Assembly: GCA_043814095.1 (NCBI GenBank) | Contig: JBDRKI010000060.1 | Coordinates: 1-25,948, forward strand | Source of the DNA: Armatimonadota bacterium | GTDB lineage: Bacteria; Vulcanimicrobiota; JACPDS01; JBDRKI01 | Direction of reading: 5' to 3' | Length of the DNA stretch: 25,948 nucleotides | Part shown: positions 3,950-25,443 of the stretch, one piece after another | Numbering within the stretch: the stretch's first letter is position 1 | Layout: each line of letters begins with the position of its first letter | The notes under the pieces: model-generated | The model's database searches: none | Told to the model about the DNA's origin: nothing | What the model saw: only the letters and a program-made list of their open reading frames with translations | Made by a program: the position numbers and the translations under genes

Positions 3950-4170
3950 TTCTACCTCGCAAAGCAAATTGTACGCGATACTTATTCTATGACACTTCAA
4001 GTTATTCCTACTTGTGAATTATAAGATTCGGGACATTGTTTGAGATTGTCAATTAGTTAAATATCCGAATTATTCAGAAAACCCGCCGAACAGGGATGAT
4101 GAATGAAAAACACCATTTTTCTAATAAAAAATTCTCAAAAATCCAAGCTTGATATGATTTATATGGCTGT

Positions 4171-4728
4171 TCAAGATAAAATTTTATCTGCCGCTTCTTT
4201 AATGCTTTTTACTATAAAATCAGGCTCTGTTTTAGGGTCCGTTTTTTTAAGTTCTTCTTTTCCCTGCCCTGTTAAAACCAGTATCGATTTAGCACCTACT
4301 TTTTTTCCGAGCATGACATCTGATATCTTATCACCTACCACAAAAGATTTCTTAAGATTGATATTAAAATCTTTCTTTGCGGCATTTATAAGGCCGGGTG
4401 AAGGCTTTCTGCATACGCATTTTTTTACATACTTCTTATTTTTGCCTTTTATAAAATGGGGGCAGTAATAAAAAGCGTCTATATAGGCGCCTTCTTTATT
4501 TAAACGGTACTGCAGTTCCGTATTTATTTTAGTGACAGCGTCTTCTTTAAAATAGCCTCTTGCTATACCTGACTGGTTAGATACTATAATCACCAGAAAA
4601 CCGGCTTTATTGAGCTTTTTAACGGCTTTAGAGGCCCCTTTTACCAGTCTTAAGCCCTTTATCCCGCTTAAGTAGCCCCTGTCATATATTACGGTGCCGT
4701 CCCTGTCCAGAAAGACGCATTTTGTCAT
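4171..4728 (-). CDS. gmhB: HAD-IIIA phosphatase, D-glycero-D-manno-heptose 1,7-bisphosphate phosphatase-like
   Basis: FLDRDGT (motif I), SNQSGIARG, Zn site CPH...CVCRKPSPG, VVGDKISD. ATGA overlap with the upstream gene. Confidence 0.85.
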   Translation of the reverse strand: MTKCVFLDRDGTVIYDRGYLSGIKGLRLVKGASKAVKKLNKAGFLVIIVSNQSGIARGYFKEDAVTKINTELQYRLNKEGAYIDAFYYCPHFIKGKNKKYVKKCVCRKPSPGLINAAKKDFNINLKKSFVVGDKISDVMLGKKVGAKSILVLTGQGKEELKKTDPKTEPDFIVKSIKEAADKILS

Positions 4729-6902
4729 TTTTTAACCTCTGATAACGCTTTTTTGAGCATAATATTAAGCTGTTCAATGCTTTGGTCCATTTCAACCGCT
4801 TTTTTAAGATATTTTACCGCTTCATTATATTCTTTATCATCATAATACTCAACACCAAGAGCTATGATGGCGGATAAATTATTCTCATTTAATTCCAGAG
4901 CTTTAAAAAGACACTCTTTGGCTTTTTTATTACCGCCCTCAATTGTATTTATACTTGCATATATGACATATGAGTCTGAAACCTGTTTTTTAAGCTCTTC
5001 CCTTCTAAAAGAAAGCATAACGGGGAAATATTCATCTTTGTATAATGACAAAACTTTTTCTATAAGTTCACGGCTTTTAGCTATATCGCCGTTCTCCAGA
5101 TAATAAACGGCAAGATCGTTATAAAGGGAGGGGTAATTAACGGGATCAATATTAAGGGCTTTTTGCAGGTTTTCCGCGTATAAATCGTTCCTGCTTTTTA
5201 TTTTATATAACTTTGCCAGCACAATGTAATTATTGACTTTTAACTTCTGAAGATTTACGGCTTCTGTTGCCTGGATTATTCCTTTATTAAGATATTCTTT
5301 TTCGGGATCTTTCAAAAAATTGTAATAATATGCCGAAGCAAGCTCCCTGCGGTATTCGGGATTCCAGGGATTTAAACCGACCGCCTTTTTATAATTTAAA
5401 ACTGCATCGGAAAAAGAGCCCTTTCTCTGGTAATATTGCGCTATATCAGCTTTATTCTGCGCGAAATACATAACCATAATACCTGCGGATATAATTACAA
5501 GCAGTATAACAATTAAATAATCATAATATTTTATGCTTACGGGTTTCTCATCTTTCCCTTTATTGCTTAAGAAGCTGGAATAATAAAATATGATGCCCGT
5601 GAAAAAGAAGAAATAATAAAAGGACGCTGAGAAAAGCCAGTCAACATGGGCCATAATATGCATAAGAAGGCAGACGCACCCCGTGGATAATCCCAGAATA
5701 AGGGGATAATGGGGGGTATTTCTTGATAACTTTAACGCTCTTATATACTCCCTTAATATTAAAAATAAAATTATACACATAAGAACAAAACCGAATATCC
5801 CGAGCTCGCATAGTATCTTAAGATAAAAATTATGCGCAAACTTGGAATAATATCTCGGATCTTTCTCATACTTGGGAAGATGCGCGGGAAAATTAGAAAG
5901 CCCGACACCTGTAAGGGGGTGGTCTTTGAATTCTGCAAATGCAATTTTATAGAATTCTATTCTTGCAAGTTTTGAAGGCTCTTTTGTATTTGCTATGGAA
6001 GTAAGTTCCTCCTTAATAAAAGAAGGTACAACTTTCCTTTCCTGATTCTTTTTGGCAGAGAAAACGGGTATGAAAATAAGAAAAACAAATAAAAGTATAA
6101 ATAATTTCTTAAATACGGCTTTTTTATCATCTATATATTTATATATACTTACAAATATGAAAATAAATACGGCAATAAATACAAGCCAGCTCCAGCGGGA
6201 TTGTGTAAATAAAAGCCCCAAAAGAGATAAGCATCCTGTTAGCCCGAAAAGAATAACCTCATAGCTCGCAACCAACATAAAGATAAGCGCAACTATAAAT
6301 AATATGAGCCAGCTCCAATGGGACAGGGTAAATAAAAGCCCCAGTAAAGATAAACAACCTATTACGCCCAAAAAAATAACTTTAGAGCTTCTTTTATCAG
6401 CCAGGAACAAGCTCAACATGACGGGAAGCGTTAATATTAAAAATCCGGCACATGTGTTTTTCTGGTAAAAAGTTGAATAAAAATCCGAATCAAATCCCGC
6501 TAGATTAGTTGATTTATAAAAAAACAAGCCGGCAATACTAAAAAGCATAACGGCAAAGGCAAGAAAAACAGCAAATTTTCCGGAATATTCGTCTTTAAAC
6601 ATATTCGCGATAACGATAAAAACAAGAAAATACGCCGTAAATAAAAGGCCCGAATACAGGCTTTCATAAACACAGGCCGAATTAATCGTGGAAATAAAAA
6701 ATACGATTAAAAACAAAATAGATGGCCAAATAAAACTTTTAAGGTTAGATAAGCTTTTCTTATCCGATGAAACCGCATATAGCGCGGCGCTGAGATACGC
6801 GAAAACCATAAGAACAGCCTGGGCCCTGATGCTGTGTCCGCCGTAATCCAGAGGCAGGTAAAACAAAAGAAAACTGAGTATTATAAAAACTAATAATTGC
6901 AT
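4725..6902 (-). CDS. O-antigen ligase / O-oligosaccharyltransferase (Wzy_C) family membrane protein with C-terminal TPRs
   Basis: Many TM helices, STFYQKNTCAGFL, LLFTQSR, and a periplasmic loop R...HPLTGVGLSNF...AHNFYLKILCELGIFG carrying the conserved His. The last ~240 aa are TPR-like. Confidence 0.88.
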   Translation of the reverse strand: MQLLVFIILSFLLFYLPLDYGGHSIRAQAVLMVFAYLSAALYAVSSDKKSLSNLKSFIWPSILFLIVFFISTINSACVYESLYSGLLFTAYFLVFIVIANMFKDEYSGKFAVFLAFAVMLFSIAGLFFYKSTNLAGFDSDFYSTFYQKNTCAGFLILTLPVMLSLFLADKRSSKVIFLGVIGCLSLLGLLFTLSHWSWLILFIVALIFMLVASYEVILFGLTGCLSLLGLLFTQSRWSWLVFIAVFIFIFVSIYKYIDDKKAVFKKLFILLFVFLIFIPVFSAKKNQERKVVPSFIKEELTSIANTKEPSKLARIEFYKIAFAEFKDHPLTGVGLSNFPAHLPKYEKDPRYYSKFAHNFYLKILCELGIFGFVLMCIILFLILREYIRALKLSRNTPHYPLILGLSTGCVCLLMHIMAHVDWLFSASFYYFFFFTGIIFYYSSFLSNKGKDEKPVSIKYYDYLIVILLVIISAGIMVMYFAQNKADIAQYYQRKGSFSDAVLNYKKAVGLNPWNPEYRRELASAYYYNFLKDPEKEYLNKGIIQATEAVNLQKLKVNNYIVLAKLYKIKSRNDLYAENLQKALNIDPVNYPSLYNDLAVYYLENGDIAKSRELIEKVLSLYKDEYFPVMLSFRREELKKQVSDSYVIYASINTIEGGNKKAKECLFKALELNENNLSAIIALGVEYYDDKEYNEAVKYLKKAVEMDQSIEQLNIMLKKALSEVKK
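6135..6380 (-). repeat. Intragenic tandem duplication of 123 nt (41 aa, one TM hairpin)
   Basis: VIFLGVIGCLSLLGLLFTLSHWSWLILFIVALIFMLVASYE (6258-6380) vs VILFGLTGCLSLLGLLFTQSRWSWLVFIAVFIFIFVSIYKY (6135-6257). Shared DNA includes gtaaataaaagcccca and agccagctcca at a 123-nt offset. Confidence 0.9.
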
Positions 6903-6926
6903 AGGTTGCCGCCTGCCGCGGTTTGT

Positions 6927-7907
6927 CTATTTTATGGCTTCCAGCATATCCTGTCTGTTTTTGTCAAAAGTATATTTTAAAGACCCGAAATTCACAAGCC
7001 CTTCTCCCGCGGAAATAAAGTAATATTTTTTACTTAATTTATTGATAAAAACAAGACCGTTATCATATTCAAACGAGACAAAATTCGGCTCCTTGTTTAT
7101 GGTTTTTGCCCATTTATCAAGATATTTTAAATTGTCAATTAATTTAATATAATCCGTATTTTTATACGCCGGTTTAAGGCTGACCTGGGCTATAATTTCA
7201 CCTTTTTTATCAAATACCGCCGCGCACATAACCGACCGGAGTTTTAAAAATTCTTCTAAAGGTCCTGAAAGCTCCGCATTTTGATGCACATCTTTTTTAG
7301 CCGCTTTGGGTTTAGCTTTTTTAAGCGGAGCCTTGGTCTTTGTTTTGGTTATTGTTTGACCGCCTAATATGGATTTATTAAAATCCCTGCCTCTTTTAAG
7401 AACATTGATAGCAAACTCAGTCCGCATACAAGAAGGATTTTGCCCTAATAAATCTTCGTATTCTTTTATTAATTTATCGTACTGGCCTAATTTTAACTGG
7501 TAATTAACCTGCAGAGATGCAATCTCCTCTTCGGAAGTTGAGAAATCCTCGTAATCCTGAATAACTTGATTTTTATCCTTTGACTCTTTCTTTAATAATT
7601 TATATAAAAGATATCCTTCCATGTTTTTAGGCGATATGTCTTTTATTTTATTAAGCACCCTGTAAGTATCCCCGTACATCTTTTTATGAAGATATATTTT
7701 TGCAATCTCTATATAAGCTTTTAAAAAGCGGGGGTCTTTGCTAATTGCTTTTTCAAAACACATTAAAGCTTCCAGATAAAATCCCAGCACTGATTTAATC
7801 TCACCCAGATGAAAGCAGGCTGTGACATTTCCCGGGGTACCGGCAACCGCGCCTTCAAGAATTTTAATCTGTTCTTTGAGAATGTTTATTTCGGACTTAT
7901 TAGACAC
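6927..7907 (-). CDS. TPR protein with a C-terminal Roadblock/LC7-like domain
   Basis: N-terminal TPRs (ACFHLGEIKSVLGFYLEALMCFEKAISKDP; AYIEIAKIY). The last ~115 aa follow the roadblock pattern (LEEFLKLRSVMCAAVFDKKGEII...VSFEYDNGLVFI...VNFGSLKY). GTG start with GAGGGGG RBS. Confidence 0.7.
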   Translation of the reverse strand: MSNKSEINILKEQIKILEGAVAGTPGNVTACFHLGEIKSVLGFYLEALMCFEKAISKDPRFLKAYIEIAKIYLHKKMYGDTYRVLNKIKDISPKNMEGYLLYKLLKKESKDKNQVIQDYEDFSTSEEEIASLQVNYQLKLGQYDKLIKEYEDLLGQNPSCMRTEFAINVLKRGRDFNKSILGGQTITKTKTKAPLKKAKPKAAKKDVHQNAELSGPLEEFLKLRSVMCAAVFDKKGEIIAQVSLKPAYKNTDYIKLIDNLKYLDKWAKTINKEPNFVSFEYDNGLVFINKLSKKYYFISAGEGLVNFGSLKYTFDKNRQDMLEAIK

Positions 7908-7916
7908 ACAGCCCCC

Positions 7917-8285
7917 TCAAATTTTATCTGCATTCATTTTTTCAAGAATTTCCTGATTTTTTCTCACCAGAAGCCTTATTCTTCCGAGATTTGCTTTTTC
8001 ATCAAATACTATTATCAAAGAAATATCATTTTTAAAAAAATAAGCGTTGATGCTTAAATCATCAGCGTTTAAGAAAACGTCCTTTAAGGATTTTTTCTTA
8101 AAAAGCGGCTCTATGACGGACGCGGACAAGCTTCCCAGCTCCTTCAATACTTCAGAAACACTTATCGCGCTTAAACCCTGCCGTAGAACGGTGCAGATCT
8201 CTTCTCCTTTAGAATTTGAAACCTGAGCCTGTTTTACGCCGTCTATTTTAGTAAATTCCGTTAAAATTATTTCCAGACTATCCAT
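7917..8285 (-). CDS. Roadblock/LC7 domain protein (MglB-like)
   Basis: 122 aa: LEIILTEFTKIDGVKQAQVSNSKGEEI...LIIVFDEKANLGRIRLLVRK. The C-terminal LxxxFDxxxxLGxxRL pattern is characteristic of MglB-type roadblock proteins. Confidence 0.78.
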   Translation of the reverse strand: MDSLEIILTEFTKIDGVKQAQVSNSKGEEICTVLRQGLSAISVSEVLKELGSLSASVIEPLFKKKSLKDVFLNADDLSINAYFFKNDISLIIVFDEKANLGRIRLLVRKNQEILEKMNADKI

Positions 8286-8313
8286 AAATAACCGTCCGTT
8301 TTTTTATAAATTA

Positions 8314-9210
8314 TTAATCCTGATCTACCGGATTTATATTTACCAGATCTCCTTCTTTTAAGCCCATCTTCTTAATTAATGAATTTGAAAAACCGATATA
8401 CCCGCCAAGCTTTTTACCCGGGGAGGCATGAAGTTTATATGAAGCGCCCTGGCTTGTTTCAACTTCTACAACAAAAGAAGGCTCCTTTATACCCCATTCC
8501 CGTACAATATACTCGTCTATTTTTACAATATCCCCTCTGCCTAAAAAACGGTTTTCTCCTTTTATTATAAGCTGTTTTATCTTATTAAGCTTTACCTGGA
8601 TTTCTTTCTTTTTTTCTTCCAAAACCGAATTTTCTTCCGCATAGAAAGATATTTTTCCGCCGTTAACCGACATCTCGTCTAAAAATACATGTATTTTATC
8701 CGAAGAACACGATATCTGGCCGATTTCCGCGGCAAAATTATCAACTAAAAATTTTCCCTTATCAAATAAGATATATGAAGCCGCGCCCATGGATAAGCTT
8801 TTTAAAAACCCGGTGTATGATTTGTCTTCAATTTCGCTTAAAAGAACCATAAGATCCTTTTTCTGAATGCTGTAATCTTCATAAATTGATTTAAATAAAT
8901 AAATATTTGATAAAACACTGGTGACACTCGGGGTCAGAACATATGTGCTTGCCTTCATCTGTTTTTTTCTTATGCGGTTAAAGAATTTAGACGCAAGACA
9001 GCAATGGTAGGTTTCGCGCTCGCCCTTTATTATCTCTATCGTGTTAATAATTCCGCCATGCAGGAAGAAAAAAACTCCTGCCCCCTCCTGATATTCTAAA
9101 TATAAATAACCGCTGAATCCTTCCTGTTCCAGATTATTAATCATTATATTAATATCCGTATAATCCAGCTTTATGCTTTCAATCAAGGGATTTCCTTTTG
9201 GAAGAAACAT
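8314..9210 (-). CDS. Uncharacterised protein with two DUF2226/DUF4388(PATAN)-like repeats and a small C-terminal beta-barrel-like domain
   Basis: MFLPKG...INNLEQEGFSGYLYLE...GVFFFLHGGI, and a second copy LSEIEDKSYTGFLK...YILFDKGKF. The C-terminus IGFSNSLIKKMGLKEGDLVNI resembles double-psi/AbrB-type barrels. The ORF is secure; the domain names are tentative. Confidence 0.55.
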   Translation of the reverse strand: MFLPKGNPLIESIKLDYTDINIMINNLEQEGFSGYLYLEYQEGAGVFFFLHGGIINTIEIIKGERETYHCCLASKFFNRIRKKQMKASTYVLTPSVTSVLSNIYLFKSIYEDYSIQKKDLMVLLSEIEDKSYTGFLKSLSMGAASYILFDKGKFLVDNFAAEIGQISCSSDKIHVFLDEMSVNGGKISFYAEENSVLEEKKKEIQVKLNKIKQLIIKGENRFLGRGDIVKIDEYIVREWGIKEPSFVVEVETSQGASYKLHASPGKKLGGYIGFSNSLIKKMGLKEGDLVNINPVDQD

Positions 9211-9237
9211 TATTACCTCTTGTATATAAAATGCTTT

Positions 9238-9852
9238 TTATTGAGCGCCGGTACTATCTCCCGGAGATTCACTGCTGCCGGCGTCCTCATCCTCGTCAAT
9301 TTTAATTGTTTTTTTTCTTTCAACTTTGTGTTCTTCTACGGATCTTGCCAGCATGGACTGCCATGGATCTTCCGGAGTATCTTTTTCTGCTGCTTTCTCA
9401 AGCTCGCTCTTGCTTGTGAACTCTATTATATACGGCTCACCACCGGATGAATCATCCGTATTTAAATGATCTTTAATAACCATGGGTTCCGGGTCTTTTT
9501 CTTCCCCGCCGTCAAACTTTTGCTGAGTCTTAATTGTGTCTAAAACCGAAGATTCCACAACTTCCACCTCTCCGATTAATTCTTCTCTTTGCTTGAGCAG
9601 CGTCCTAAAAGGGTCATATTCCTCTTCTTTATCGGCTTTGCTTTCTTCTTTAACCTCCGCACCGGATATGGTTTTCACCGGCTCTTTATTCTCAGGCGCA
9701 GCCGCGGATGCTTCTTCTGCTTTGGACGCTCCTTTTAAAAACCCCAGCTCCCACAATATTAAGGCTACGAATATTACGGAAAAGAAAAAGAGGCTGAATT
9801 TAACCAGATATATGTTTTCAATTAAAATATCCAGCAATTTTTGATCCAACAT
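9238..9852 (-). CDS. Single-pass membrane protein with a long acidic, probably disordered tail
   Basis: One hydrophobic helix (FSLFFFSVIFVALILW), then Glu/Asp-rich sequence. AGGGG RBS. Packed closely between its operon neighbours. Confidence 0.75.
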   Translation of the reverse strand: MLDQKLLDILIENIYLVKFSLFFFSVIFVALILWELGFLKGASKAEEASAAAPENKEPVKTISGAEVKEESKADKEEEYDPFRTLLKQREELIGEVEVVESSVLDTIKTQQKFDGGEEKDPEPMVIKDHLNTDDSSGGEPYIIEFTSKSELEKAAEKDTPEDPWQSMLARSVEEHKVERKKTIKIDEDEDAGSSESPGDSTGAQ

Positions 9853-9863
9853 ATCTATCCCCT

Positions 9864-12800
9864 TTATCTGCTTTTCTTGCCAAGCCGCTCAACTTTCTGA
9901 GCTACATCCTTATATCTTATGTCAATCGCGTAACAATCCTGATAATTCTCAAGAGCTTCTTTATACCTGCCTGTGTCTTCATAAAGCGAGGCCAGATCGT
10001 ATTTAACCTCAATCTGGTCGTCTTCGTCTTCAATTTCATTAATTATCCGTAAATACTGCTTTACGGCCATATCAACAAGCCCGTACTCTTTCAGGTATCC
10101 GGCGATAAGTCTTTTAATTTCCCTTGACCCGTCTTCCCGCGCGCAGTTAAAAAGCAGGAAGATGGCATCTTCATAAAAGGATATGTCGCGGTATAATCCG
10201 GCAACCTGCAAATTTTGTTCACCCGGAGAAAAATTGTCTTTGATGGCCTGCCTGAATTCGCCTATAACTGCGTGCAGGCCGCCCTTAAAGGCCGCTGATT
10301 TAATATAAGAGACGGCGGAATCAAACATGTTCAATTTTATGCAGGCAATAACTAATTTAGTAAGGGAGCCCGGGTCTTCATTAACATATTCTCCCGTCTC
10401 TTCCAGCAGTTCCTTAACTTTTAAGTAATTTTCAGCGTTAAAGTATATATCTGCCAGCTTAAGTTTTACCTGGGGGGTATCTTTTATCTTAACTATCTCT
10501 TTGTAATATTTGTCAATCTTATCATACTGTTTACCGGAAACAAATAACCCTATAATGTCAAAATAAGTATCAATCAGGTTTTCACGGTCATTCAGGGTTA
10601 AATAAACTTCTGCAAGTTTTTTATAGCATTCATATGTCTTATCACTGTAACCGAATTCATTATATAAAGACACAAGCATATTTAAAATGGGCTTTAAGGA
10701 ATCATAGTCTTTATTATTAAAATAATGGGCGCTTAACGGCTCAAGAAGCGCAATCAATGCTTCATTCAAATTTTCATCATACAATAACCTTGATAAATCC
10801 ATTAATTTACCAAGATATCCGGGAGCTGATGAGGAGGAATGCTTAATAAATCCGGCAATCAAAGTTTCCGCTTTTTTTACCATATTCTGCTTCAGCAGGC
10901 CGGAGATTATTTCAAACTCTTCCGAAACGCTCTTTTCCTTATCGCCCAGTTTATCATACCAGTGAGCTCTTCTTGTCCTTAACTCCCAGTACCTGTCAAA
11001 AAAGCCGCCGTCATACAAAAGATCCAGAACCGGCGGGATTATATTCAAAGCCTGCTTGTAATCTCCGTTTTTCTCCAATAGATCCAGCAGCTCATCCATT
11101 ATATTCAGGCCTTCATTTAAAAGATTGTTTTTAATAAATATAACAGCCAGATCTTTTCTTGTTTTGTAATCATCCTGCAAAAGCTCTATAAGTTCGGCGG
11201 CTGCTTTTTCCGCTTTATCATATTTTTGCTCCTCTATCAAATCTCTTATAAGAACCTTATAATTAGCTTTTGCCAAATCCATGTGATTATCGGCAACCAG
11301 CAATTTTATAAGCTCGGCCCTGTACCTTGTCTGCTTGCCGGAGAGCTTCAATACCCGTGTTATCATCTCCACGGCTTTATGATGCATTTTATTTAAAATA
11401 TACATATCTGCCAGAAACATGAAGCAGGACAGAGCCTCTTTAAACATACCGTTTTCCCGCGCGATATCCCCCAGAACATTATACGCGTTAAAATCCTGCG
11501 GATCGATCTTTATTATTTTGCGGCATATTTCAAGCGCGTGTCCGGTGTCTTCATTTTTTAAATCATAATCTAAAATATTTAAAAGCTCCGCTTTTGCTTC
11601 TTTTACCTGATTTCTGTTAAAAAGCACTGACGCTATTCTCTCCCTGACTTCTATATCATCGGGAAAGAAACTTAATATGTTTCTGAATATTTTTTCACTG
11701 GTAATATAATCCTTATTCTCGCATAAAACATCACCCAGATATTTAGACTCTTTAACCGCATCCTCTATCCTTCCGCTGCCGAGATAAAGCTCTACAAGCC
11801 TTTCACGGGCGCTTACATCCATTGGGTTAAGCTGGAGTATTTTCTGGCTGACATTGACAAGGTCTTCTTTTCTGTTCTGAGTGTTAAGCAGTCCGGCGTA
11901 AAGCTTCATGGAATTTAAATCCGAAGGGTCGGCGCTTAAAGCAGATATAATTTCTTTTTCCGCTCTGTCAAACTGATTTTTTTCAAAAAACGAAAGAGCC
12001 AGCTGGTAATGCATGCCGCTCTGTTTCGGGAAATTTTCGTTTAAAATCTCGGATATTTCCTGCGCTTCCTGATCCCGGCCGTCTTTTTTATAAATTTCAA
12101 ACAGCTTGATATAGGCGCTCATTGCTTCTTCTTTATCGCCCTTTTTAAGACATAATTCTCCGAGAATTTTATAAGCTTCGGTGGTGTCCGAACTTATTTC
12201 TATAACTTTCCTGCAGATATTTATTCCTTCATCGGTAAGGTTGCTCTGCATATAACCGGTGGCTAAATTTATAAATATCGGCACTGCTTCGTCTATTTTG
12301 CCTGATTCAATCAAGCGGGCAATAAGTTTATGGCTGGCCGATAAATTAGAAGGATCTCTGTCTAAAATATCTTTGTAAATATTAATCAGTTTTTCCGCTA
12401 TTTCGTGATTTTCCTTATCCATCTCAAGCATTTTTTCATAAAGCAGAATGCTCTTATCTATTAATCCCTCTTTTTCGTACACCGAGACAAGTTCATTTAT
12501 AATATTTAAAGCTTCCTGTTTTTTCCCTGATCTTATTAAGCTTTCGGAAAGACCCGCAAGAGCCTTCTCGTTACCGGAATCAAGAGCCAGTATTTTTCTG
12601 TAGATTTCCGATTCCTTTTCGGAGTTTTCATACTTTTTATAAAACAATACGGCATTATTATAACTTGACAGGGCCTCGTTTTTGCCGCCGCCCGCGGATA
12701 AAATATCTCCCAGAAATTCATAAGCAGGGGCCGACAGGTGCGGCGACAGCCTTATAACTTCCTGAAATTCTCCTACCGCGCTTTTTACGTCGTTCATCTG

Positions 12801-13292
12801 CATATAAATCCTGCCGAGCAGCATGTGAATATCGGCCTCTTCCGGTAGAACCTCCAGTGCTTTTTTGCAAACATCCGCCGCGGCTTCAAAAGACGAAGCC
12901 TGAAAATACATGGAAGCCAGATTAATCACGGCCGGGCTCAAAAAGCTTAATACTGCTCTGCCTATCTCTTCCGGCGAAGAAGTAAGGATTTTCTTATCTA
13001 CAAAACTCAAGTTTGGCGAAGACGGATTAAAGCTTATAATGTCTTTATATACTTTTCCGGCCTCTTCTGTGTTGCCTGAATTCTGAAGAACGGCGGCATA
13101 TTTTATATATCCCTGAACTCCTTCTGAAAATCTTCCGAGCTTAAAGGATAAATTGCCTATATTGCGCATAACAACAGAATTATTGGGCGATATTTTATCC
13201 GCTTCCAAATAAAAACTTAAAGCACCCTCAAAATCATTGTTTACAACAAGTTGATCCGCTTTTTTAATCAACTCTTGAAACTTTTCTTCCAT
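9864..13292 (-). CDS. Giant TPR-repeat protein with an SgmX-like C-terminal end
   Basis: TPR-like helices throughout. Ends VKYDLASLYEDTGRYKEALENYQDCYAIDIRYKDVAQKVERL. The ATG at 13292 (MEEKF) with a GAGGG RBS is preferred over the TTG at 13307. Confidence 0.85.
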   Translation of the reverse strand: MEEKFQELIKKADQLVVNNDFEGALSFYLEADKISPNNSVVMRNIGNLSFKLGRFSEGVQGYIKYAAVLQNSGNTEEAGKVYKDIISFNPSSPNLSFVDKKILTSSPEEIGRAVLSFLSPAVINLASMYFQASSFEAAADVCKKALEVLPEEADIHMLLGRIYMQMNDVKSAVGEFQEVIRLSPHLSAPAYEFLGDILSAGGGKNEALSSYNNAVLFYKKYENSEKESEIYRKILALDSGNEKALAGLSESLIRSGKKQEALNIINELVSVYEKEGLIDKSILLYEKMLEMDKENHEIAEKLINIYKDILDRDPSNLSASHKLIARLIESGKIDEAVPIFINLATGYMQSNLTDEGINICRKVIEISSDTTEAYKILGELCLKKGDKEEAMSAYIKLFEIYKKDGRDQEAQEISEILNENFPKQSGMHYQLALSFFEKNQFDRAEKEIISALSADPSDLNSMKLYAGLLNTQNRKEDLVNVSQKILQLNPMDVSARERLVELYLGSGRIEDAVKESKYLGDVLCENKDYITSEKIFRNILSFFPDDIEVRERIASVLFNRNQVKEAKAELLNILDYDLKNEDTGHALEICRKIIKIDPQDFNAYNVLGDIARENGMFKEALSCFMFLADMYILNKMHHKAVEMITRVLKLSGKQTRYRAELIKLLVADNHMDLAKANYKVLIRDLIEEQKYDKAEKAAAELIELLQDDYKTRKDLAVIFIKNNLLNEGLNIMDELLDLLEKNGDYKQALNIIPPVLDLLYDGGFFDRYWELRTRRAHWYDKLGDKEKSVSEEFEIISGLLKQNMVKKAETLIAGFIKHSSSSAPGYLGKLMDLSRLLYDENLNEALIALLEPLSAHYFNNKDYDSLKPILNMLVSLYNEFGYSDKTYECYKKLAEVYLTLNDRENLIDTYFDIIGLFVSGKQYDKIDKYYKEIVKIKDTPQVKLKLADIYFNAENYLKVKELLEETGEYVNEDPGSLTKLVIACIKLNMFDSAVSYIKSAAFKGGLHAVIGEFRQAIKDNFSPGEQNLQVAGLYRDISFYEDAIFLLFNCAREDGSREIKRLIAGYLKEYGLVDMAVKQYLRIINEIEDEDDQIEVKYDLASLYEDTGRYKEALENYQDCYAIDIRYKDVAQKVERLGKKSR

Positions 13293-13323
13293 TAAATTAT
13301 CCCTCAAAATTGTGCTTTTTACC

Positions 13324-16300
13324 TTATTTATTTCTCTCTTTTAAAGCTTTAATTTTTTCCTTAACGTCTTCATACCCCGGGTATTCCTCTGATACCTGGA
13401 CAAAATAAGATTCGGCTTCTTTATACATCTTATTATCCATATATATCGTTCCGAGATTATACTTGATTTGCAGATAATCTCCCCTGGAGTATCCCTCTAC
13501 GGACAGCGCCTTCTTAAGCTGTCTGACGGCAAGATCAAACATTCCCATACCCTCTTTCTGGCTGAAGCATAAAGCAAGCATATTATACGCCTTTATCAGC
13601 AGCTCCGGACATTTTTTAACATGCTGGAACTGCTCAATCGCGTCATCTAATCTTCCCAGTTCTTTATACATAACGCCCAGATCATACTGGGAGCGGAAAT
13701 CTTCCGGATCGTTTTGTATTTTCTCAATATACTTACCGGTAATTTCTTTTTCCAGAGTTTTAAAAGAGGGATCTATATTTACCAGGACCTTGTAAACTTC
13801 CACCGCTTTTCCGGGATTATTCATTTTCAGGTGAGCGTTGAGCAAATACTGTAAAACTTTAACATCCCCGGGAGATAATCTCGCGGCTTTTTCAAAATTC
13901 AAAACAGCGTCTTGTATGTTTCTGATCTTTTCCAGATAAATCAGCGCCAGATTAAAATAAAAGTCAAAATTTTCGTCATCCAGTTCAATAAGCTTCTTAT
14001 AAATATTTACGACTTCTTCCCAGCGCTTTTTCAAAGATAAGGTTTCTATAAGATGCACTAATTCATTTACCGCTTTTTCTTTCTCTTCTGACAGTATATA
14101 TATACGGGAAAGCTCTTCTCTGGCGGACAGATTATCAGGATCATGATCAATAATCTTTTTATAAATATTCGCGGCGTCTTCGTATCTTTTATCGGCTAAA
14201 CAGGTTTTTATAATGATGTCTGTGTATTTTAAAGCATTTTCCCTGTCGCCTAAATCAAAATATATATCAACCAGTTTATCATAAGCCGGTATAAAGTTTT
14301 CATTAATCCTGACTATTTTTTCCAGATAATCACGCGCCGGTTCTTTTTTGCCGGAAGTCAGCAAAATACCGGCTATCTTAAACAGATTATCAATAGATTC
14401 CTCTGAATCACCGCCGGCAAAAAATTCGCTTAATCTGATACGGGCCGCAAGGTTCTCCGGACTAAGTTTAATAATTTTTTTAAGGATATTTTTCTCCTGA
14501 TCTTCATATTTCATATCACGGTAAACAGCGGCCAGATCCGCATACTGGGCAACGGCTTCGTTAACTTTATTTAAGACACTGTATAAATTACCCAGCTTTT
14601 CTTTTACAGATAAATCGCCGGATTCGGTAAAAACCCTGTTGTATATATCTATGGCTTTATCTATATCCTCTTTCACGGTGTATTCTTCCGCTATATTTTC
14701 AAGATGGAACACGCCTTCCGCTTTGCGGCCGGATTCAAGATACAGCTCAGCCAGCTTCCTTCTTGTTAGAAGATCGTCATCTTCTAACAGGATAATATTC
14801 TGGTAAAGACTGATTAATTCGGGAGTTTTTTTCTGCTTTTTAAAAATATCGGCCAATTGTCTGCTCTCAACCAAAACCTGCTCGGGGGCGCTTTTCCATT
14901 TTAATACATCTAAAATATTTTTTCTGTATTCCGTGTTTTCTTTGTCTTTTTCTTTTAAAGAATATAATATCTCCAGCGCGACATCTAAAAATCCGATTTC
15001 AACATATATAGATGCAAGTTCAAATCTTACGAAATCGTCATCCGGATTAATTTTTAATAATTCTATGCATTTTTCTATCGCCTTGCCCGCCTTGCCTGAT
15101 ACCAGTAACTTGTCTATATTTTCAAGAACTTTTTCTTTTACTTTGGGAGAAAGTTTTCTAGTCTTTATTTCGGCAGCAGCAGGAACAGGAACTGCCTCCT
15201 CTTCCGGAACCTCTTCAATACCGCTAACAGTGACTTCTTCCTCGGGAACAGCGGGTTCTTCTGGTATCTTTTCTTCTACAGGCTCAGGAGATATTTCCGC
15301 TTCTTCTTCAGGAACTTCTTCCTGAACAGTAACCTCTTCAATATCACTTACAATTACTTCTTCTTCAGGAGCAATAACTTCCTCGGAAATCTGTTCAGGA
15401 ACTTCTTCCTGAACAGTAACCTCTTCAATATCACCTACAATTACTTCTTCTTCAGGAGCAATAACTTCTCCGAGTTCCGACGCAGTCTCAACAAACTCAA
15501 TACGCTCTTTCTCTTCGGAAATTACGCTTTCGGCAGGCTCTGCCTTTACTTCTTCCTGCACCATGGCTTCCGGAGGTATAAGTTTGCCCTTTATTAATCC
15601 TGTTTTTCTTCTTATGGCTTCTTCTCGGTCTTGCTTGGATATTAAGCCTGCTTTTATATCTAAACCGGCTTCCGCCCTATCCTTTATGAGTCCGAGAGGA
15701 GTTTTATCTTTTTTGTCTTTTTTAATAAGCCCTGTTTTAATAAGATGTTTGTCAAGCTTTACTTTTATTTCTTCTTTCTTTAACTTCTTAAGCGCCTCTT
15801 CATCCTTTGCTTCTATTAAAATAAAGGGCTCTTCGGTTTTTTCCTCGTCAACACTTATTATTACTTCTTCTTCGGAAGCAATGATCTCTTCCGGAACTTC
15901 TTCTTCCGGAATCTCTTGCTCAGGTATTTTTTCTTCTTCAGGCTCTTCTTCCGGAACTTCTTCAGTACTGCTTATAATTATCTCTTCTTCGGAAGCAATG
16001 ATCTCTTCCGGAATCTCTTCCGGCTCTTTAACTTCAATCTCTTCGGGTTCCGCAGAGGTAAGCGGGGCTCCCAGATTAGTTAATTCCCTGCATGCCACCG
16101 GATTCGTGGGATCCATTACCAGTATTTTTTGATATATTTTAACGGCATTGTCTACATCTCCCAGAATCTGGTAGTTCTGCGCGGCATCTATAAAATTCTT
16201 AACGGAATCTTTAACCTTGCCCTGTTCATGGTAAAGTTCGCCCAGTTTCTCCATGGCCCGTACTTCCTGGTTGTCCAGCGACAGGACTTTTCCAAAAGCA

Positions 16301-17067
16301 AGCACGGCATCTTTATACTGTCCTTTTTTCTGACAGACTTCACCCAGAAGCATAAGGGCTTCAACATTGTTTAAATCTAAACGAAGAACCGATCTAAACT
16401 CAACTTCCGCTTCTTTATACTGTCCAGTATTAATATAGACTTTGCCCAGATCTATCATTATGTCTTTGTCTTCGGGAACAACCAGCTTAAGGCGTTTATA
16501 GGTCTCAATAGATTTATTGGGCAGGCCTTTCTGCAGATAAGCGGAAGCAATTTTCTTATACTGAGCAACCGATTCCTGAATCTGGCCGTAACTTATATAT
16601 ATTTCCGCGAGTTCAGACCCTACTTCAAGGTTCTCCGGCGCCGATTCCTGTGTTTTCTGGAGCAGCATTATTGACTGATCTCCCTGTCCCAGTTCAATAA
16701 GCAACCTTGCCAGCCCGAGCGACTGCCTTATAACTTCCTGCCTGTCGCCCAGTTTCTGATAAAGCAGTATAATCTTCATTCTGACATTGATATTCTCGGG
16801 ATCAAGCTTAAGAATCCACCTGCACACTTCCAGGGCGCGCCTGAGATCTCCTGAAGATTCCATTATATTGATAAGAATAAAATACTGGTTTACGACAAGG
16901 GAAATAAGGCCCCTGACGGCATAAATATCCGCCAGCTTTAAAACAGCCTGTTCGTTATGAGGATCCTGGTCTATTATTTGTTTAAGCTTTTCCTGCGCGG
17001 CGTCAAATTGACCGGTATCATAATCATTCTCCGCCGTGTTTAATAAATCAGATATATTCTCGGGCAT
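13324..17067 (-). CDS. Giant TPR-repeat protein, SgmX-like, with a central Glu-rich repeat linker
   Basis: N-terminal TPR array (~330 aa), an acidic linker of ~300 aa, a second TPR array, and a C-terminal module DPEDFRSQYDLGVMYKELGRLDDAIEQFQ...AYNMLALCF...KYNLGTIY...YPGYEDVKEKI that matches my recollection of the SgmX-family C-terminus. GAGGT RBS. Confidence 0.85.
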   Translation of the reverse strand: MPENISDLLNTAENDYDTGQFDAAQEKLKQIIDQDPHNEQAVLKLADIYAVRGLISLVVNQYFILINIMESSGDLRRALEVCRWILKLDPENINVRMKIILLYQKLGDRQEVIRQSLGLARLLIELGQGDQSIMLLQKTQESAPENLEVGSELAEIYISYGQIQESVAQYKKIASAYLQKGLPNKSIETYKRLKLVVPEDKDIMIDLGKVYINTGQYKEAEVEFRSVLRLDLNNVEALMLLGEVCQKKGQYKDAVLAFGKVLSLDNQEVRAMEKLGELYHEQGKVKDSVKNFIDAAQNYQILGDVDNAVKIYQKILVMDPTNPVACRELTNLGAPLTSAEPEEIEVKEPEEIPEEIIASEEEIIISSTEEVPEEEPEEEKIPEQEIPEEEVPEEIIASEEEVIISVDEEKTEEPFILIEAKDEEALKKLKKEEIKVKLDKHLIKTGLIKKDKKDKTPLGLIKDRAEAGLDIKAGLISKQDREEAIRRKTGLIKGKLIPPEAMVQEEVKAEPAESVISEEKERIEFVETASELGEVIAPEEEVIVGDIEEVTVQEEVPEQISEEVIAPEEEVIVSDIEEVTVQEEVPEEEAEISPEPVEEKIPEEPAVPEEEVTVSGIEEVPEEEAVPVPAAAEIKTRKLSPKVKEKVLENIDKLLVSGKAGKAIEKCIELLKINPDDDFVRFELASIYVEIGFLDVALEILYSLKEKDKENTEYRKNILDVLKWKSAPEQVLVESRQLADIFKKQKKTPELISLYQNIILLEDDDLLTRRKLAELYLESGRKAEGVFHLENIAEEYTVKEDIDKAIDIYNRVFTESGDLSVKEKLGNLYSVLNKVNEAVAQYADLAAVYRDMKYEDQEKNILKKIIKLSPENLAARIRLSEFFAGGDSEESIDNLFKIAGILLTSGKKEPARDYLEKIVRINENFIPAYDKLVDIYFDLGDRENALKYTDIIIKTCLADKRYEDAANIYKKIIDHDPDNLSAREELSRIYILSEEKEKAVNELVHLIETLSLKKRWEEVVNIYKKLIELDDENFDFYFNLALIYLEKIRNIQDAVLNFEKAARLSPGDVKVLQYLLNAHLKMNNPGKAVEVYKVLVNIDPSFKTLEKEITGKYIEKIQNDPEDFRSQYDLGVMYKELGRLDDAIEQFQHVKKCPELLIKAYNMLALCFSQKEGMGMFDLAVRQLKKALSVEGYSRGDYLQIKYNLGTIYMDNKMYKEAESYFVQVSEEYPGYEDVKEKIKALKERNK
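15307..15468 (-). repeat. Intragenic direct repeat, 87-nt period (29 aa)
   Basis: 75-nt copies at 15307-15381 and 15394-15468 with one mismatch. They encode EVIAPEEEVIV(G/S)DIEEVTVQEEVPE. Confidence 0.92.
15855..16020 (-). repeat. Intragenic direct repeat, 117-nt period (39 aa)
   Basis: ttcggaagcaatgatctcttccggaa at 15871 and 15988, encoding PEEIIASEEE(I/V)IIS twice. Confidence 0.85.
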
Positions 17068-17195
17068 TTTACAACCTCATATATGTATAAATACAAAGTA
17101 AAGGACTTAACTGTTTAAAAATTACGTCCAACAATTATATCTTTATAATATATTAGTTATTTATATATTTTTTCCTTTAATATTTTAAAAAAATA

Positions 17196-17223
17196 ATTAT
17201 AAGAATAGCTATAATAAGGTCAA
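17196..17223 (-). promoter_or_regulatory. Putative sigma70 promoter for the TPR/Roadblock unit
   Basis: On the minus strand, TTGACC (17223-17218), 16 nt, TATAAT (17201-17196). It lies directly after the pil terminator and ~130 nt upstream of the ATG at 17067. The region is AT-rich, so chance matches are possible. Confidence 0.55.
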
Positions 17224-17224
17224 T

Positions 17225-17268
17225 AAAAAATATGCCGTATAACTTCCGGGCTATACAGCATATTTTTT
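17225..17268 (-). terminator. Intrinsic terminator after the second secretin gene
   Basis: Minus-strand RNA AUAUGCUGUAUAGC-ccggaa-GUUAUACGGCAUAU followed by a U-run. Both stem irregularities are G-U pairs only on the minus strand, which fixes the orientation. Confidence 0.85.
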
Positions 17269-17285
17269 GTCAAAAATTGATTATT

Positions 17286-18758
17286 TTACGATGTTTTTGC
17301 TATTATCCTCGGTGTAACTATAATCACTACTTCATTATCGGCTTTTGTTACCGCTTTGCCCTTAAAAAATGAACCCACAATCGGCAGATCTCCCAGAAGG
17401 GGGATCTTATTCACGGTATTTGTATAAGCTTTCCTGCGCAGTCCGCCTATTATAATGGGTTCCCCGTCCTTAACTCTAACGGTAATGTCGGCGGAACGCT
17501 CGTTGGTATAAGGGTATAAATTCGCCACCAGACTTATAAAATCGCTTATCTCGGGCTTTACGTTAACCACAACATAGCCGTCACTTGTAATTGTGGGTGT
17601 TACCTTAACAGTCACACCTACATCCACGGAGTCAACGGAATATTCACCGGTTCTAGAATCATATTTTACATATCTGAACTTACGGCTTGATATAAGATCC
17701 GCTTCCTTGCCGCTCAAGGTGGTAACGGTAGGATTGGCAACAATTTCGGCAATGCCTCTCTGAACCAGAGCGTCCATGGCATAATTCATTGATATAGGCG
17801 ATCTTACAAACGGGAAAAACTGACCAAATCTCAATTCTATGTTTGTCGGAGGCGCCTGATATCCCGGGGTCGCGCTCCATTGATTATTAAACACTTCCTG
17901 GATTGTCGTTGTTATTGACGTGGAGGTTCCGCCGGTAGAAAAATTCGCTCCTATATTTGCTTGCGCGGTTTTACTTAAAACCAAAACCTTTACCTCAAGC
18001 GCAACCTGCTCAAGCGGAATATCAGTCTTATCAAGATATGACTGCAGTGCATCAAAAACCTGTTTTGTGCCCCTGACAACCAAAGAATTGGTTCTCTCGT
18101 CAGCTTGATAGTCCAGCCCGGCCATTAAAATCTGCAGCTGTGATTCTATATCTTTAACCTGGGCATATTTTAAACTTATGACCTTTGTCTGCACATCCGG
18201 AGTAAACACATTTATGGCAGGTACGTCTAATTTCGCGATCAGATCTTTAACTCTTTTAATGGCCCCTACAGATCCATTCGCGACTATGGCGTTAACCCTC
18301 TCGTCCACGCTCAGAGAAATTCCGGGCACGGCTGCACGCAGGGTTTCCACTATCTGGTTGCAGTTGGCCTGTTCCAGCATTATCACCTGGTAAGCATCGG
18401 CACCGCCGCCGGAATAAAGATTAGACGCTATCTGCGGGAGTTCTTTTGGCAGGGCAACCACAATCAGATCATCTACTATTCTGTAATCATAGCCGGCTGT
18501 CTTAAGAATTACTCCCAATGCCACGCTTAACGGGACATTCTTCAAGTGCATATTAACTTTGCCCTGAACAGAGCTTGCAATCACACAATCATACTTACAC
18601 TCTTTAGCTACAAGCTTAATAACATCCACCAGATCAGCGCCGGAGAAATCCAGAAGTTTAATGGTTTTTTCCTGCGCGTAAACTTTAGGCACGGCTATAC
18701 AGATAATCATTAAGAAAAGTACTGCTGTGATTGTTAATTTTAAAAATCTATTCTGCAT
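17286..18758 (-). CDS. Second secretin (short PilQ/GspD-like; N0 plus two N1-type domains plus secretin domain, no AMIN)
   Basis: Signal peptide (…VYA|Q), LDFSGADLVDVIKLVA (N0), two DERxNxxxxxG N-domains, QVALEVKV, ANPTVTTLSGKEA, VKDGEPIIIGGL, KIPLLGDLPIVGSFFK, EVVIIVTPRII. The ATG at 18758 follows AAGGAGGTGA. Confidence 0.92.
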   Translation of the reverse strand: MQNRFLKLTITAVLFLMIICIAVPKVYAQEKTIKLLDFSGADLVDVIKLVAKECKYDCVIASSVQGKVNMHLKNVPLSVALGVILKTAGYDYRIVDDLIVVALPKELPQIASNLYSGGGADAYQVIMLEQANCNQIVETLRAAVPGISLSVDERVNAIVANGSVGAIKRVKDLIAKLDVPAINVFTPDVQTKVISLKYAQVKDIESQLQILMAGLDYQADERTNSLVVRGTKQVFDALQSYLDKTDIPLEQVALEVKVLVLSKTAQANIGANFSTGGTSTSITTTIQEVFNNQWSATPGYQAPPTNIELRFGQFFPFVRSPISMNYAMDALVQRGIAEIVANPTVTTLSGKEADLISSRKFRYVKYDSRTGEYSVDSVDVGVTVKVTPTITSDGYVVVNVKPEISDFISLVANLYPYTNERSADITVRVKDGEPIIIGGLRRKAYTNTVNKIPLLGDLPIVGSFFKGKAVTKADNEVVIIVTPRIIAKTS

Positions 18759-18768
18759 ACTCACCTCC

Positions 18769-21348: not shown

Positions 21349-21374
21349 ATCCTCACCTACTTTCGTCAAATCTA

Positions 21375-22058
21375 TCAGTTAGTCTGGGTTTGTACCGACT
21401 GTGGTATCTGCTGCAGCTGTTGATCCGTGAGATTTTGATCCACTTTTTCAGTTGAAAGCTGCATGTTATTTCCTCCCGAGGACTCGGGAGCGCCCATCGG
21501 CGTAGGAGGCTGCATCTGCGGGGGCATTAAATTGGACGGCGCCGCTGATTCTACGGGCTCGTCTTTTGCCGAAAAAGTATATTCCTGCAGTTCCAAAGTT
21601 GTTTTTCCTTTATTATTTACCAGAGCAACGGCTTTATCGGTTATCCTGCTTACCGTATACCCGGCACATCTCTCTCCCTCTTTTACTATAAATCCTTCAT
21701 ATCCCGATTTTATAATCGCATATCTGTCGCCATTGGCGAAAAATATACCGGTAAGCATCATGCCTGCGGAAAAACCTTCACCCTGGCTGGCAGATCCGGG
21801 AGTTTTCGCGCCGGGCTTGCCGGTGCTTCCTCCGGCTGCTCCTATCGGTATAAAAGGATCCTCTCTTCCTGTCTCGCCGTAAAGCTTCTGCGGAGCCTGA
21901 GGAACAACCAAAGCGGCTCCATCAGCGGCTTTCTTGGCGCCGGACGGGTTAACCTGCTGTACTGACTGGGCAATAACCCAGCCCGCAGATATTACGCATA
22001 TAAAGGTAAAAGCCGCAACCAAAATTAACGTTAATCTGATCTTAATACTGTTACTCAT
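21375..22058 (-). CDS. PilP-like pilus alignment protein
   Basis: Sits between pilO and pilQ. GREDPF motif, then LTGIFFANGDRYAII...VKEGE...YTVSRITDKAV (PilP/GspC-HR beta fold). No clear lipobox. Pro/Gln-rich tail. Confidence 0.7.
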   Translation of the reverse strand: MSNSIKIRLTLILVAAFTFICVISAGWVIAQSVQQVNPSGAKKAADGAALVVPQAPQKLYGETGREDPFIPIGAAGGSTGKPGAKTPGSASQGEGFSAGMMLTGIFFANGDRYAIIKSGYEGFIVKEGERCAGYTVSRITDKAVALVNNKGKTTLELQEYTFSAKDEPVESAAPSNLMPPQMQPPTPMGAPESSGGNNMQLSTEKVDQNLTDQQLQQIPQSVQTQTN

Positions 22059-22061
22059 CGC

Positions 22062-23347: not shown

Positions 23348-23398
23348 ACCCTTACCTCCACAGATTCGCTCTGCGCGAATAAATTTAAAAAATATTTT

Positions 23399-24502: not shown

Positions 24503-24603
24503 TTATTGGCAGACTCCTTTCTTAATATATGTTATACCTATTCTTAAATAATTATTTAATATTTATAACTTTATTTTCTATATATTAATATTTAATCCTG
24601 CTA

Positions 24604-25437: not shown

Positions 25438-25443
25438 AAATTA

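Follow-up and report, generated by a model that had tools for sequence, protein, structure and literature searches.

The polarity and type IVa pilus (T4aP) proteins MglA, MglB, MglC, RomR and SgmX have been well studied in Myxococcus xanthus. SgmX is a tetratricopeptide repeat (TPR) protein with 14 TPRs and three functional regions, in which the C-terminal TPRs bind MglA-GTP and the N-terminal TPRs activate T4aP; a STRING co-occurrence analysis with SgmX gave two uncharacterised PATAN proteins in the same organism (PMC11580455). MglB and MglC are Roadblock homodimers that stack and form a RomR/MglC/MglB complex, in which MglC binds a Glu-rich C-terminal helix of RomR located after a disordered region (PMC10329633). 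The PATAN domain (DUF4388, PF14332) of Synechocystis binds PilB1 and localises to the membrane, PatA-type regulators bind PilC as well, and fusions to GspE_N occur among PATAN proteins (bioRxiv 10.1101/2021.06.11.447907). A block of seven genes (g1 to g7) that brings domains of both kinds together is described here from an Armatimonadota bacterium (assembly GCA_043814095.1). The window analysed is the whole 25,948-nucleotide (nt) stretch of contig JBDRKI010000060.1, in which the block stands beside a type IV pilus cluster and is followed by an eighth gene, g8.

Roadblock proteins also occur in other genomic settings. A survey of 749 MglB homologues recorded 421 coupled to MglA and 328 orphans, none of the latter having been characterised as of 2014 according to that survey, which also notes, citing Makarova 2006, that MglB and MglA genes occur near PATAN genes (Wuichet and Sogaard-Andersen, PMC4316618). 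The actinobacterial conservon consists of the histidine kinase CvnA, the Roadblock protein CvnB, CvnC and the GTPase CvnD (PMC4316618).

The genes g1 to g7 very probably form one functional unit, whose likely role is in regulation of the type IV pilus or of the cell surface. The specific reading put forward here, with a probability of roughly 0.42, is that g1 to g7 encode a lineage-specific signalling scaffold at the cytoplasmic face of the membrane that probably acts on the pilus motor. The genes g1 to g8 are numbered in transcription order, and all lie on the minus strand of a window with a G+C content of 0.35-0.46 per kb (Table 1). They are separated by gaps of 16, 11, 27, 28, 9, 24 and -4 nt, the last being an ATGA overlap at the g7/g8 junction. 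The initial annotation had reported eight co-oriented genes with small gaps, one overlap and a candidate promoter of their own, and this layout is confirmed.

Relatives of the block were identified with a degenerate DNA pattern that was taken from the N-terminus of g4, encodes P-x-G-N-x-[hydrophobic]-[ILMF]-E-x7-D-x6-N-[LF] and matched the window once against 0 expected. An earlier scan with a narrow g4 alignment had given 50 pattern matches and no true relative. The degenerate pattern returned 62 loci (cited below by L numbers), comprising 26 chance matches and 36 loci with a full-length g4 homologue (26-43% identity). The same block as in the window is present in 31 of the 36 loci, whereas four have another context and one is too short; genes were counted by tblastn and not by open reading frame (ORF) calls. 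Full-length g2 homologues (21-29% identity) are encoded upstream of g4 in all 25 block loci whose upstream DNA spans 2.5 kb or more. The gene g5 is present in 30 of the 31 block loci, directly after g4 in 23 of them, and g6 likewise in 30. Where at least 7 kb of downstream DNA is available, g7 follows g6 in 17 of 24 loci. The order g1-g2-(g3)-g4-g5-g6-g7 thus recurs in 31 loci of other organisms, with 20-45% protein identity and a locus G+C content of 0.33-0.67, so that the grouping is not due to chance and the block, given this span of G+C content, is old. Synteny in relatives, on which the initial annotation had made its reading depend, is strongly conserved.

The submitters' labels of the 31 block loci, which are unconfirmed, include 12 Vulcanimicrobiota, Candidatus Xenobia or Eremiobacteraeota, three UBP9, ten named only 'bacterium', two Burkholderiales, and one each of Armatimonadetes, Selenomonadaceae, Chloroflexota and Bacillota. 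Xenobia is a class of Vulcanimicrobiota in the NCBI taxonomy, and GTDB places UBP9 in the same phylum. The block is read as specific to a deep lineage whose members, labelled Vulcanimicrobiota, Eremiobacteraeota or Xenobia, are mostly uncultured. As had been supposed, the organism is not myxobacterial, and the labels of its relatives fall mainly in the Vulcanimicrobiota/Xenobia group (12 of 31). The nearest g4 among the scanned genomes is only 43% identical, which indicates that the pattern reached no species representative of the lineage to which the window belongs; a g4 relative with 62% identity is present in an unannotated protein library only.

Two further genes are found between g5 and g6 in many relatives. 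A receiver of about 123 amino acids (aa) is encoded in 16 of the 31 loci (Response_reg, about 110 bits) and a GAF-PAS-HisKA-HATPase kinase of about 510-540 aa in 18 (HATPase_c, about 105 bits). The receiver sequences retain the DD, D, T and K positions, and in all 16 loci that contain it the receiver gene begins at most a few tens of nt past g5. Both genes are absent in 12 of the 31 loci and likewise in the window. The block had been described as self-contained, which does not hold for relatives that carry a receiver and a histidine kinase inside it. Seven loci (L012, L017, L029, L037, L039, L041 and L059) contain an insert of 1-5 kb between g4 and g5 with g5, receiver, kinase and g6 contiguous, and the insert of L041 encodes a 405-aa polytopic membrane protein. 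The UBP9 locus L033 contains g1, g2 and g4, and no detectable g5, receiver, kinase, g6 or g7 in the 9 kb downstream; it differs in this from its close relatives L017 and L037 in the DNA downstream of position 9196, and L033 contains no N runs.

The product of g4 is read as two tandem PATAN (DUF4388)-like units joined to a double-psi beta-barrel. An exhaustive profile-free search gave 95 relatives at E<=1e-3, of which 20 reach E<=1e-30 and about 30 are full length at about 295 aa. DUF4388 is matched by 19 of 29 aligned full-length family members at E<=0.01 (best 7e-8), by five of 11 locus orthologues (two above the cut-off) and by 22 of 30 more distant relatives, and the PATAN-like call made for g4 therefore holds at the level of the family. 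The AlphaFold2 model built from the family alignment (predicted local distance difference test score, pLDDT, 93.7; predicted template modelling score 0.87) is composed of two similar beta-alpha-beta-beta-beta units (residues ~1-210), a long helix and a C-terminal barrel (~212-298). The barrel matches VCP/CDC48-type double-psi barrels of archaeal and human N domains in a Foldseek search of the PDB (E 3e-5; template modelling score, TM, 0.74-0.78 by target). No solved structure, PATAN included, was among the PDB fold matches of the N-terminal part, and a single-sequence search of g4 against the PDB gave no match. Receiver domains were absent from all 29 + 30 family members scanned. 'Rosetta stone' fusions of g4 were considered and rejected: the 95 relatives range from 85 to 556 aa, and among the 59 scanned no domain besides DUF4388 or DUF2226 was found.

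Outside the block, the g4 homologues of L019, L020, L048 (near position 10000) and L053 (4960-5844) are divergent from genes for MreB and a Cu_amine_oxidN1 protein and are followed by genes that encode an M48 peptidase containing zinc ribbons and a Ser/Thr kinase. In L019, L020 and L048, but not in L053, there is a PilM-like match about 9 kb upstream; that of L019 is a 701-aa kinase-PilM fusion.

The gene g5 and the C-terminus of g6 encode paralogous MglB-like Roadblock domains. The window copy of g5 alone has no Pfam match, was the only true match among 18 candidates in a single-sequence, word-indexed search of 5.8 billion proteins, and gave three non-significant MglB matches (E 0.2-0.4) against the PDB. 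Its relatives are 18-30% identical to it, and eight of nine orthologues match Robl_LC7 (PF03259) at E<=1e-3, five of the nine above the 23-bit cut-off. A family profile of 17 orthologues matches the Robl protein 7f8m (E 2.4e-11), M. xanthus MglB (E 2e-10) and CvnB5 (3leq, E 1e-5) in the PDB. The MglB match includes the C-terminal family motif N-L-G-R-[IV]-R-L (LG-x-[VI]RL in the match), which reads N-L-G-R-I-R-L in the window copy.

The protein g6 begins with TPRs, and sequence searches of the PDB with g6 and its family profile gave TPR matches only; one of eight g6 orthologues matches Robl_LC7 by sequence, below the cut-off. The AlphaFold2 model of g6, from six sequences, is poor overall (pLDDT 55.2). 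Residues 211-325 follow the Roadblock order alpha-beta-beta-alpha-beta-beta-beta-alpha (pLDDT about 54-77), and the best PDB matches of the C-terminal model in Foldseek are MglB of Thermus and Myxococcus (1j3w and 6izw, E 1e-5). The g5 and g6 families align in hhalign with a probability of 94% (E 1.4e-7, 116 columns), and the two window proteins are 27% identical across 114 residues. Both Roadblock assignments of the initial annotation withstood comparison by fold, with an ESM Atlas TM of 0.81 to Robl_LC7 clusters for g5 (feature score 0.92) and of 0.91 for residues 208-326 of g6.

The genes g1 and g2 encode proteins that match TPR families along their whole length. Both are taken as cytoplasmic because no signal peptide was found at either N-terminus. 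Conservation within the block is highest in the N-terminal ~340 residues of g1, with 50-60% identity to L007, L047 and L017 (residues 1-344 are 50% identical to L007 and residues 83-336 are 58% identical to L047), whereas the remainder of g1 and g2 shows 21-29% identity to relatives. An assignment of g1 and g2 to the periplasmic PilF/PilW/Tgl-type lipoproteins was rejected because of the missing signal peptide and PilW scores of 88.7 and 95.3 bits against a cut-off of 154.

The product of g3 is an acidic, disordered protein that is anchored in the membrane and carries short conserved motifs. Hydropathy confirms the proposed membrane anchor as a hydrophobic N-terminal segment, which is followed by an acidic tail with 44 D/E against 22 K/R in 161 residues; no Pfam or NCBIfam family matches g3. 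Two DP[FW]xx[LM]L motifs are present, at residues 80 and 162. Most loci carry at this place a protein of about 50 to 560 aa with a hydrophobic segment, in the majority of cases one with many Pro and acidic residues. Matches to [DE]-P-[FWI..]-x-x-[LMI]-[LMI] (e.g., DPFKALL, DPWKKLL) were found in 12 of the 36 loci, with three copies in seven of those, and a looser W-x-x-L-L-[KQ] version, which was not counted, was seen in high-G+C relatives. The form D-P-[FWI]-[KRQ]-x-[LM]-L occurs before g4 in one to three copies with conserved spacing in the window and in L012, L017, L033, L037, L040, L047 and L061. The short motif could be a docking peptide for the TPR proteins.

The pilus cluster upstream of the block contains genes in PilMNOPQ order, and PilM, PilN, PilO and Secretin score above their cut-offs (Table 1). 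The Secretin domains of the two secretins score 151.9 and 134.6 bits (cut-off 27.5), and the PilQ model TIGR02515 gives 253.6 bits against a cut-off of 284. The two secretin genes stand in tandem after the PilP-like gene (17286-21369), 4 nt apart. The physical attachment of the block to T4aP genes claimed at the outset stands for the window, in which the second secretin gene and g1 are 218 nt apart, and for L007, which has a secretin gene directly 5' of g1; it fails in L038, the only other relative in which DNA 5' of g1 is visible. A T2SSF/PilC-type gene is present about 8.7 kb downstream of g4 in L004. Vulcanimicrobium alpinus, the sole cultured member of the phylum, has type IV pilus motility and is phototactic (PMC9758169).

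In the proposed scaffold, g5 and g6 would stack as Roadblock dimers into a platform in the manner of MglB and MglC. The very large TPR proteins would act as scaffolds that organise the complex and would be brought to the membrane via the g3 motifs, and the PATAN part of g4 would serve as the output and contact the pilus motor (PilB or PilC), like that of cyanobacterial PatA-type regulators. Phosphorylation of the adjacent receiver, together with the kinase, would set the state of the complex in the relatives; the presence of both genes in their block makes phosphorylation control of the PATAN output plausible. The version in the window would have lost this input, and its complex may then be constitutive or driven by a switch encoded elsewhere. 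The block resembles the PatA-type (PATAN-REC) regulators PixG, PixE and PatA in having a DUF4388/PATAN-type domain in a pilus context, the domain that binds PilB1 in that system (bioRxiv 10.1101/2021.06.11.447907). It differs from them in that its PATAN part forms a tandem pair joined to a double-psi barrel and not to a receiver, that the kinase of the relatives is of the GAF-PAS type and not CheA, and that the window contains neither receiver nor kinase.

Several observations weigh against a scaffold that acts on the pilus motor. The window's g4 itself matches DUF4388 with 17.8 bits (E 0.0034), under the cut-off of 25, and lacks the fusion of PATAN to a receiver that defines the PatA type. 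To our knowledge, binding of PATAN to the motor is known from cyanobacteria only. Neither pilB, pilC nor pilT was found in the window with Pfam and NCBIfam, and adjacency to pilus genes is not general, since g1 is preceded in L038 by the 3' end of an ABC-F-type ATPase gene. Four of the 36 g4 homologues lie in the other context, with MreB, M48 peptidase and Ser/Thr kinases. The conservation of g7 and the glycosyltransferase and radical-SAM genes after it in L061 and L032 indicate a surface-glycan role. Each functional step and every contact of the scaffold is inferred. Taken together, the initial annotation is partly supported, its domain calls being largely right, whereas the SgmX label, the 'glycan-transfer pair' and the self-contained module are not.

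The best-surviving alternative, which is nevertheless unlikely, is a polarity module of the classical MglA type with its GTPase gene elsewhere, and with g5, with or without g6, as a GTPase-activating protein or platform and g1/g2 as an SgmX-like effector. It agrees with the profile match of g5 to M. xanthus MglB, including the C-terminal motif, and with the MglB structures as best matches of the g6 C-terminus. The M. xanthus system likewise has an MglB-like Roadblock protein with a second Roadblock protein (MglB and MglC), a very large cytoplasmic TPR protein (SgmX; PMC11580455), an acidic disordered partner (RomR, with its disordered region and Glu-rich MglC-binding helix; PMC10329633) and a link to type IV pili. 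In favour of it, M. xanthus MglA partners such as RomR are encoded away from mglA, but for 390 of 449 MglA genes an mglB is no more than four genes away (PMC4316618). The block also differs from the M. xanthus system in that its second Roadblock domain is fused to TPRs, its disordered protein is membrane-anchored, no RomX is encoded in its neighbourhood, and its genes form one operon in another phylum, whereas those of M. xanthus are dispersed.

The SgmX-like label given to the TPR proteins fares poorly. Membership in the NCBIfam SgmX model NF052243 is defined by at least 1800 bits, collinear across 1065 positions, and g1 and g2 score 106.9 and 48.8 bits; the generic TPR families PrsT, MamA and PilW score as well as or above the SgmX model. 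Scanned in pieces, the C-terminus of g1 maps to model positions 81-263 and is not collinear. The N-terminus of g2 maps to positions 5-170 (23 bits) and its C-terminus to 874-1014 (17 bits, E 1e-3), weak but collinear matches to both ends of the model that favour the classical module. An identification of g1 or g2 as SgmX was rejected, the resemblance being at the level of TPRs. They may nevertheless be analogous to SgmX as very large TPR scaffolds of the cytoplasm whose N-terminal part is conserved.

No GTPase family was found in the window (Pfam and NCBIfam) or in 118 ORFs of 11 loci (Pfam), the searches reaching about 10 kb around g4 per locus. A Walker-A scan of 381 called ORFs gave 19 matches and no small GTPase; those also covered by the Pfam scan are Lon and RapZ, and one is read as MutS by motif only. 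A scan for the G1, G3 and G4 motifs in 1976 frames of at least 90 aa (the window and 36 loci) gave two matches, both false, in g5 leaders. No coupled MglA-type GTPase gene is thus found within four genes of g5, and the gene that follows g5 in relatives is a receiver and not a GTPase, which argues against the classical module. The initial annotation had implied that the absence of a GTPase is unusual. The absence itself stands and is less unusual than that, given the orphan share of MglB homologues and the MglB-PATAN neighbourhoods known since 2006 (PMC4316618). The block shares with the orphans of that survey an MglB-family gene without mglA within four genes and beside a PATAN gene, whereas the survey describes pairs and the present block has seven genes (PMC4316618).

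A somewhat less probable explanation is that the block serves surface-glycan assembly, either O-antigen or exopolysaccharide ligation or polymerisation, or pilin O-glycosylation. The protein g7 would then be the enzyme, the TPR, PATAN and Roadblock proteins its regulators, and the neighbouring pil genes incidental or a sign of pilin glycosylation. The protein g7 matches Wzy_C (PF04932) with 82.1 bits (cut-off 31.7), with TPRs in addition, and has about 14 hydrophobic segments. The Wzy_C family includes pilin O-oligosaccharyltransferases such as PilO, TfpO and PglL. The protein g7 resembles the Wzy_C enzymes WaaL, Wzy, TfpO and PglL in its domain, its many membrane spans and its location near pilin genes, and differs from them in its C-terminal TPR extension; no PglL-specific domain was found in it with Pfam, which speaks against the glycan explanation. 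An internal 123-nt (41-codon) tandem duplication in g7 (6178-6266 and 6301-6389, 78% identity across 89 nt) gives the protein a second copy of a hydrophobic segment.

The conservation of g7 in the block (17 of 24 loci) favours a glycan function, as do the genes for B12-radical-SAM, GT4/GT2 and SPASM proteins after g7 in L061 and L032, the TPR and PMT_2-type proteins encoded downstream in L007, and the overlap of g7 with the GmhB-like g8 in the window. However, seven of the 24 loci with enough downstream DNA have no g7, and ribosomal protein genes follow g6 in L004 and L055; in L007, g6 is followed first by a radical-SAM/SPASM gene and next by genes for ribosomal proteins. The sources cited here also know PATAN and MglB-like proteins from motility and polarity control, not from glycan synthesis (PMC4316618, bioRxiv 10.1101/2021.06.11.447907). 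The 'glycan-transfer pair' proposed for g7 and g8 is sound for the Wzy_C protein g7 and unsound for g8, which is a predicted GmhB-like sugar-phosphate phosphatase and no transferase. The protein g8 matches HAD-IIIA with 116.3 bits (cut-off 44.6) and falls slightly below the cut-offs of two GmhB models (NF006506, 171.4 bits against 178; TIGR00213, 139.5 against 149.6). The gene is translationally coupled to g7 in the window, and is found near the block in one of the 31 loci (L061), where radical-SAM and glycosyltransferase genes lie between g8 and g7. It was therefore rejected as a member of the block and is, by sequence, a predicted passenger sugar-precursor gene (GmhB-like, of the heptose 1,7-bisphosphate phosphatase type).

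A bolder and improbable version of the signalling scaffold is a Roadblock switch without a GTPase. A phosphorylatable single-domain receiver fed by the GAF-PAS kinase would replace the small GTPase that is read by MglB-like dimers, the signal would pass via the PATAN-barrel adaptor to the pilus motor, and the window would hold a further reduced form that has lost receiver and kinase. In the myxobacterial operon, mglA follows mglB, in the same place as the receiver after g5. The conservon is similar to the block of the relatives in that a single conserved operon combines a Roadblock protein with a histidine kinase, and dissimilar in that the block has a receiver at the place of the GTPase, additional TPR, PATAN and Wzy_C proteins, and no CvnC. 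Tight packing of genes with no common function, for which the compactness of AT-rich genomes, where unrelated genes come to lie close together, and the unrelated passenger g8 could be cited, is contradicted by the same order in 31 loci at 20-45% identity over a twofold range of G+C content and can be dismissed.

The 218-nt spacer between the second secretin gene and g1 contains a hairpin and a promoter-like site (Table 1). The hairpin has a predicted stability of -21.9 kcal/mol (z -5.79; 0 of 200 shuffles equally stable) and was missed by the consensus terminator scan. The promoter-like site remains a candidate because the number of such sites in the scanned region is not above chance (41 observed against 37.9 expected from shuffles). 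Downstream of the block, two unrelated genes encode a 362-aa Fic-domain protein with a C-terminal winged helix (2912-4000) and a 361-aa protein with a terminal SEC-C motif (1753-2838). A 272-aa ORF on the plus strand (787-1605) shows a weak match to the prepilin-type N-terminal methylation motif (E 0.005, under the cut-off) and, by this motif, may encode a minor pilin or pseudopilin.

Table 1. Features of the pilus cluster, the block and the adjoining intergenic sites in the window
Feature	Position	Strand	Description
Type IV pilus cluster	17286..25854	-	Pfam + NCBIfam
Pilin	25444-25854	-	N_methyl 40.1 bits
Prepilin peptidase (pilD)	24604-25437	-	A24 peptidase
PilM	23399-24502	-	TIGR01175 243.8 bits (cut-off 133)
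PilN	22721-23347	-	37.8 bits (cut-off 22.8)
PilO	22062-22724	-	24.8 bits (cut-off 22)
PilP-like	21375-22058	-	227 aa; by position only, no pilus family match
PilQ	18769-21369	-	866 aa; AMIN, STN and N0 domains + Secretin
Second secretin	17286-18764	-	492 aa; Secretin domain, without AMIN
Candidate intrinsic terminator of the pil operon	17225..17268	-	Hairpin then U run, 3' of second secretin gene
Candidate sigma-70 promoter	17223..17196	-	TTGACC-16-TATAAT; 11/12 match, top site in 3900-17500
g1	13324-17067	-	1247 aa; cytoplasmic TPR protein
g2	9864-13307	-	1147 aa; TTG start, in-frame ATG 5 codons downstream; cytoplasmic TPR protein
g3	9238-9852	-	204 aa; N-terminal hydrophobic anchor + acidic tail
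g4	8314-9210	-	298 aa; tandem DUF4388/PATAN-like + C-terminal double-psi beta-barrel
g5	7917-8285	-	122 aa; MglB-like Roadblock/LC7
g6	6927-7907	-	326 aa; GTG start; N-terminal TPR + C-terminal Roadblock domain
g7	4725-6902	-	725 aa; Wzy_C + C-terminal TPRs, polytopic membrane protein
g8	4171-4728	-	185 aa; HAD-IIIA phosphatase, GmhB-like
Weak terminator-like site	4082..4094	-	77 nt past g8 stop; 5-bp stem, consensus match only

An MglB protein without a GTPase beside PATAN is a known theme. No published description of the block was found in a search that left subscription journals and supplements outside, and, as far as this search reached, its fixed arrangement of seven genes, the fusions of PATAN to a barrel and of TPRs to a Roadblock domain, the receiver and kinase inside the block and its restriction to an understudied phylum are undescribed. 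Should the block govern surface glycans, this would be a use of PATAN and Roadblock proteins for which no description was found.

Roadblock and MglB proteins are understood almost solely as partners of small GTPases, while 328 of 749 have no GTPase gene nearby (PMC4316618). A Roadblock switch without a GTPase, if true, would be the first functional context for this large class of orphan MglB proteins. The block gives an orphan MglB fixed partners, namely another Roadblock domain, the PATAN adaptor, very large TPR scaffolds and a tether to the membrane, often joined by a receiver and a kinase, and so bears on the roles of orphan MglB proteins and on the control of the pilus motor outside proteobacteria and cyanobacteria.

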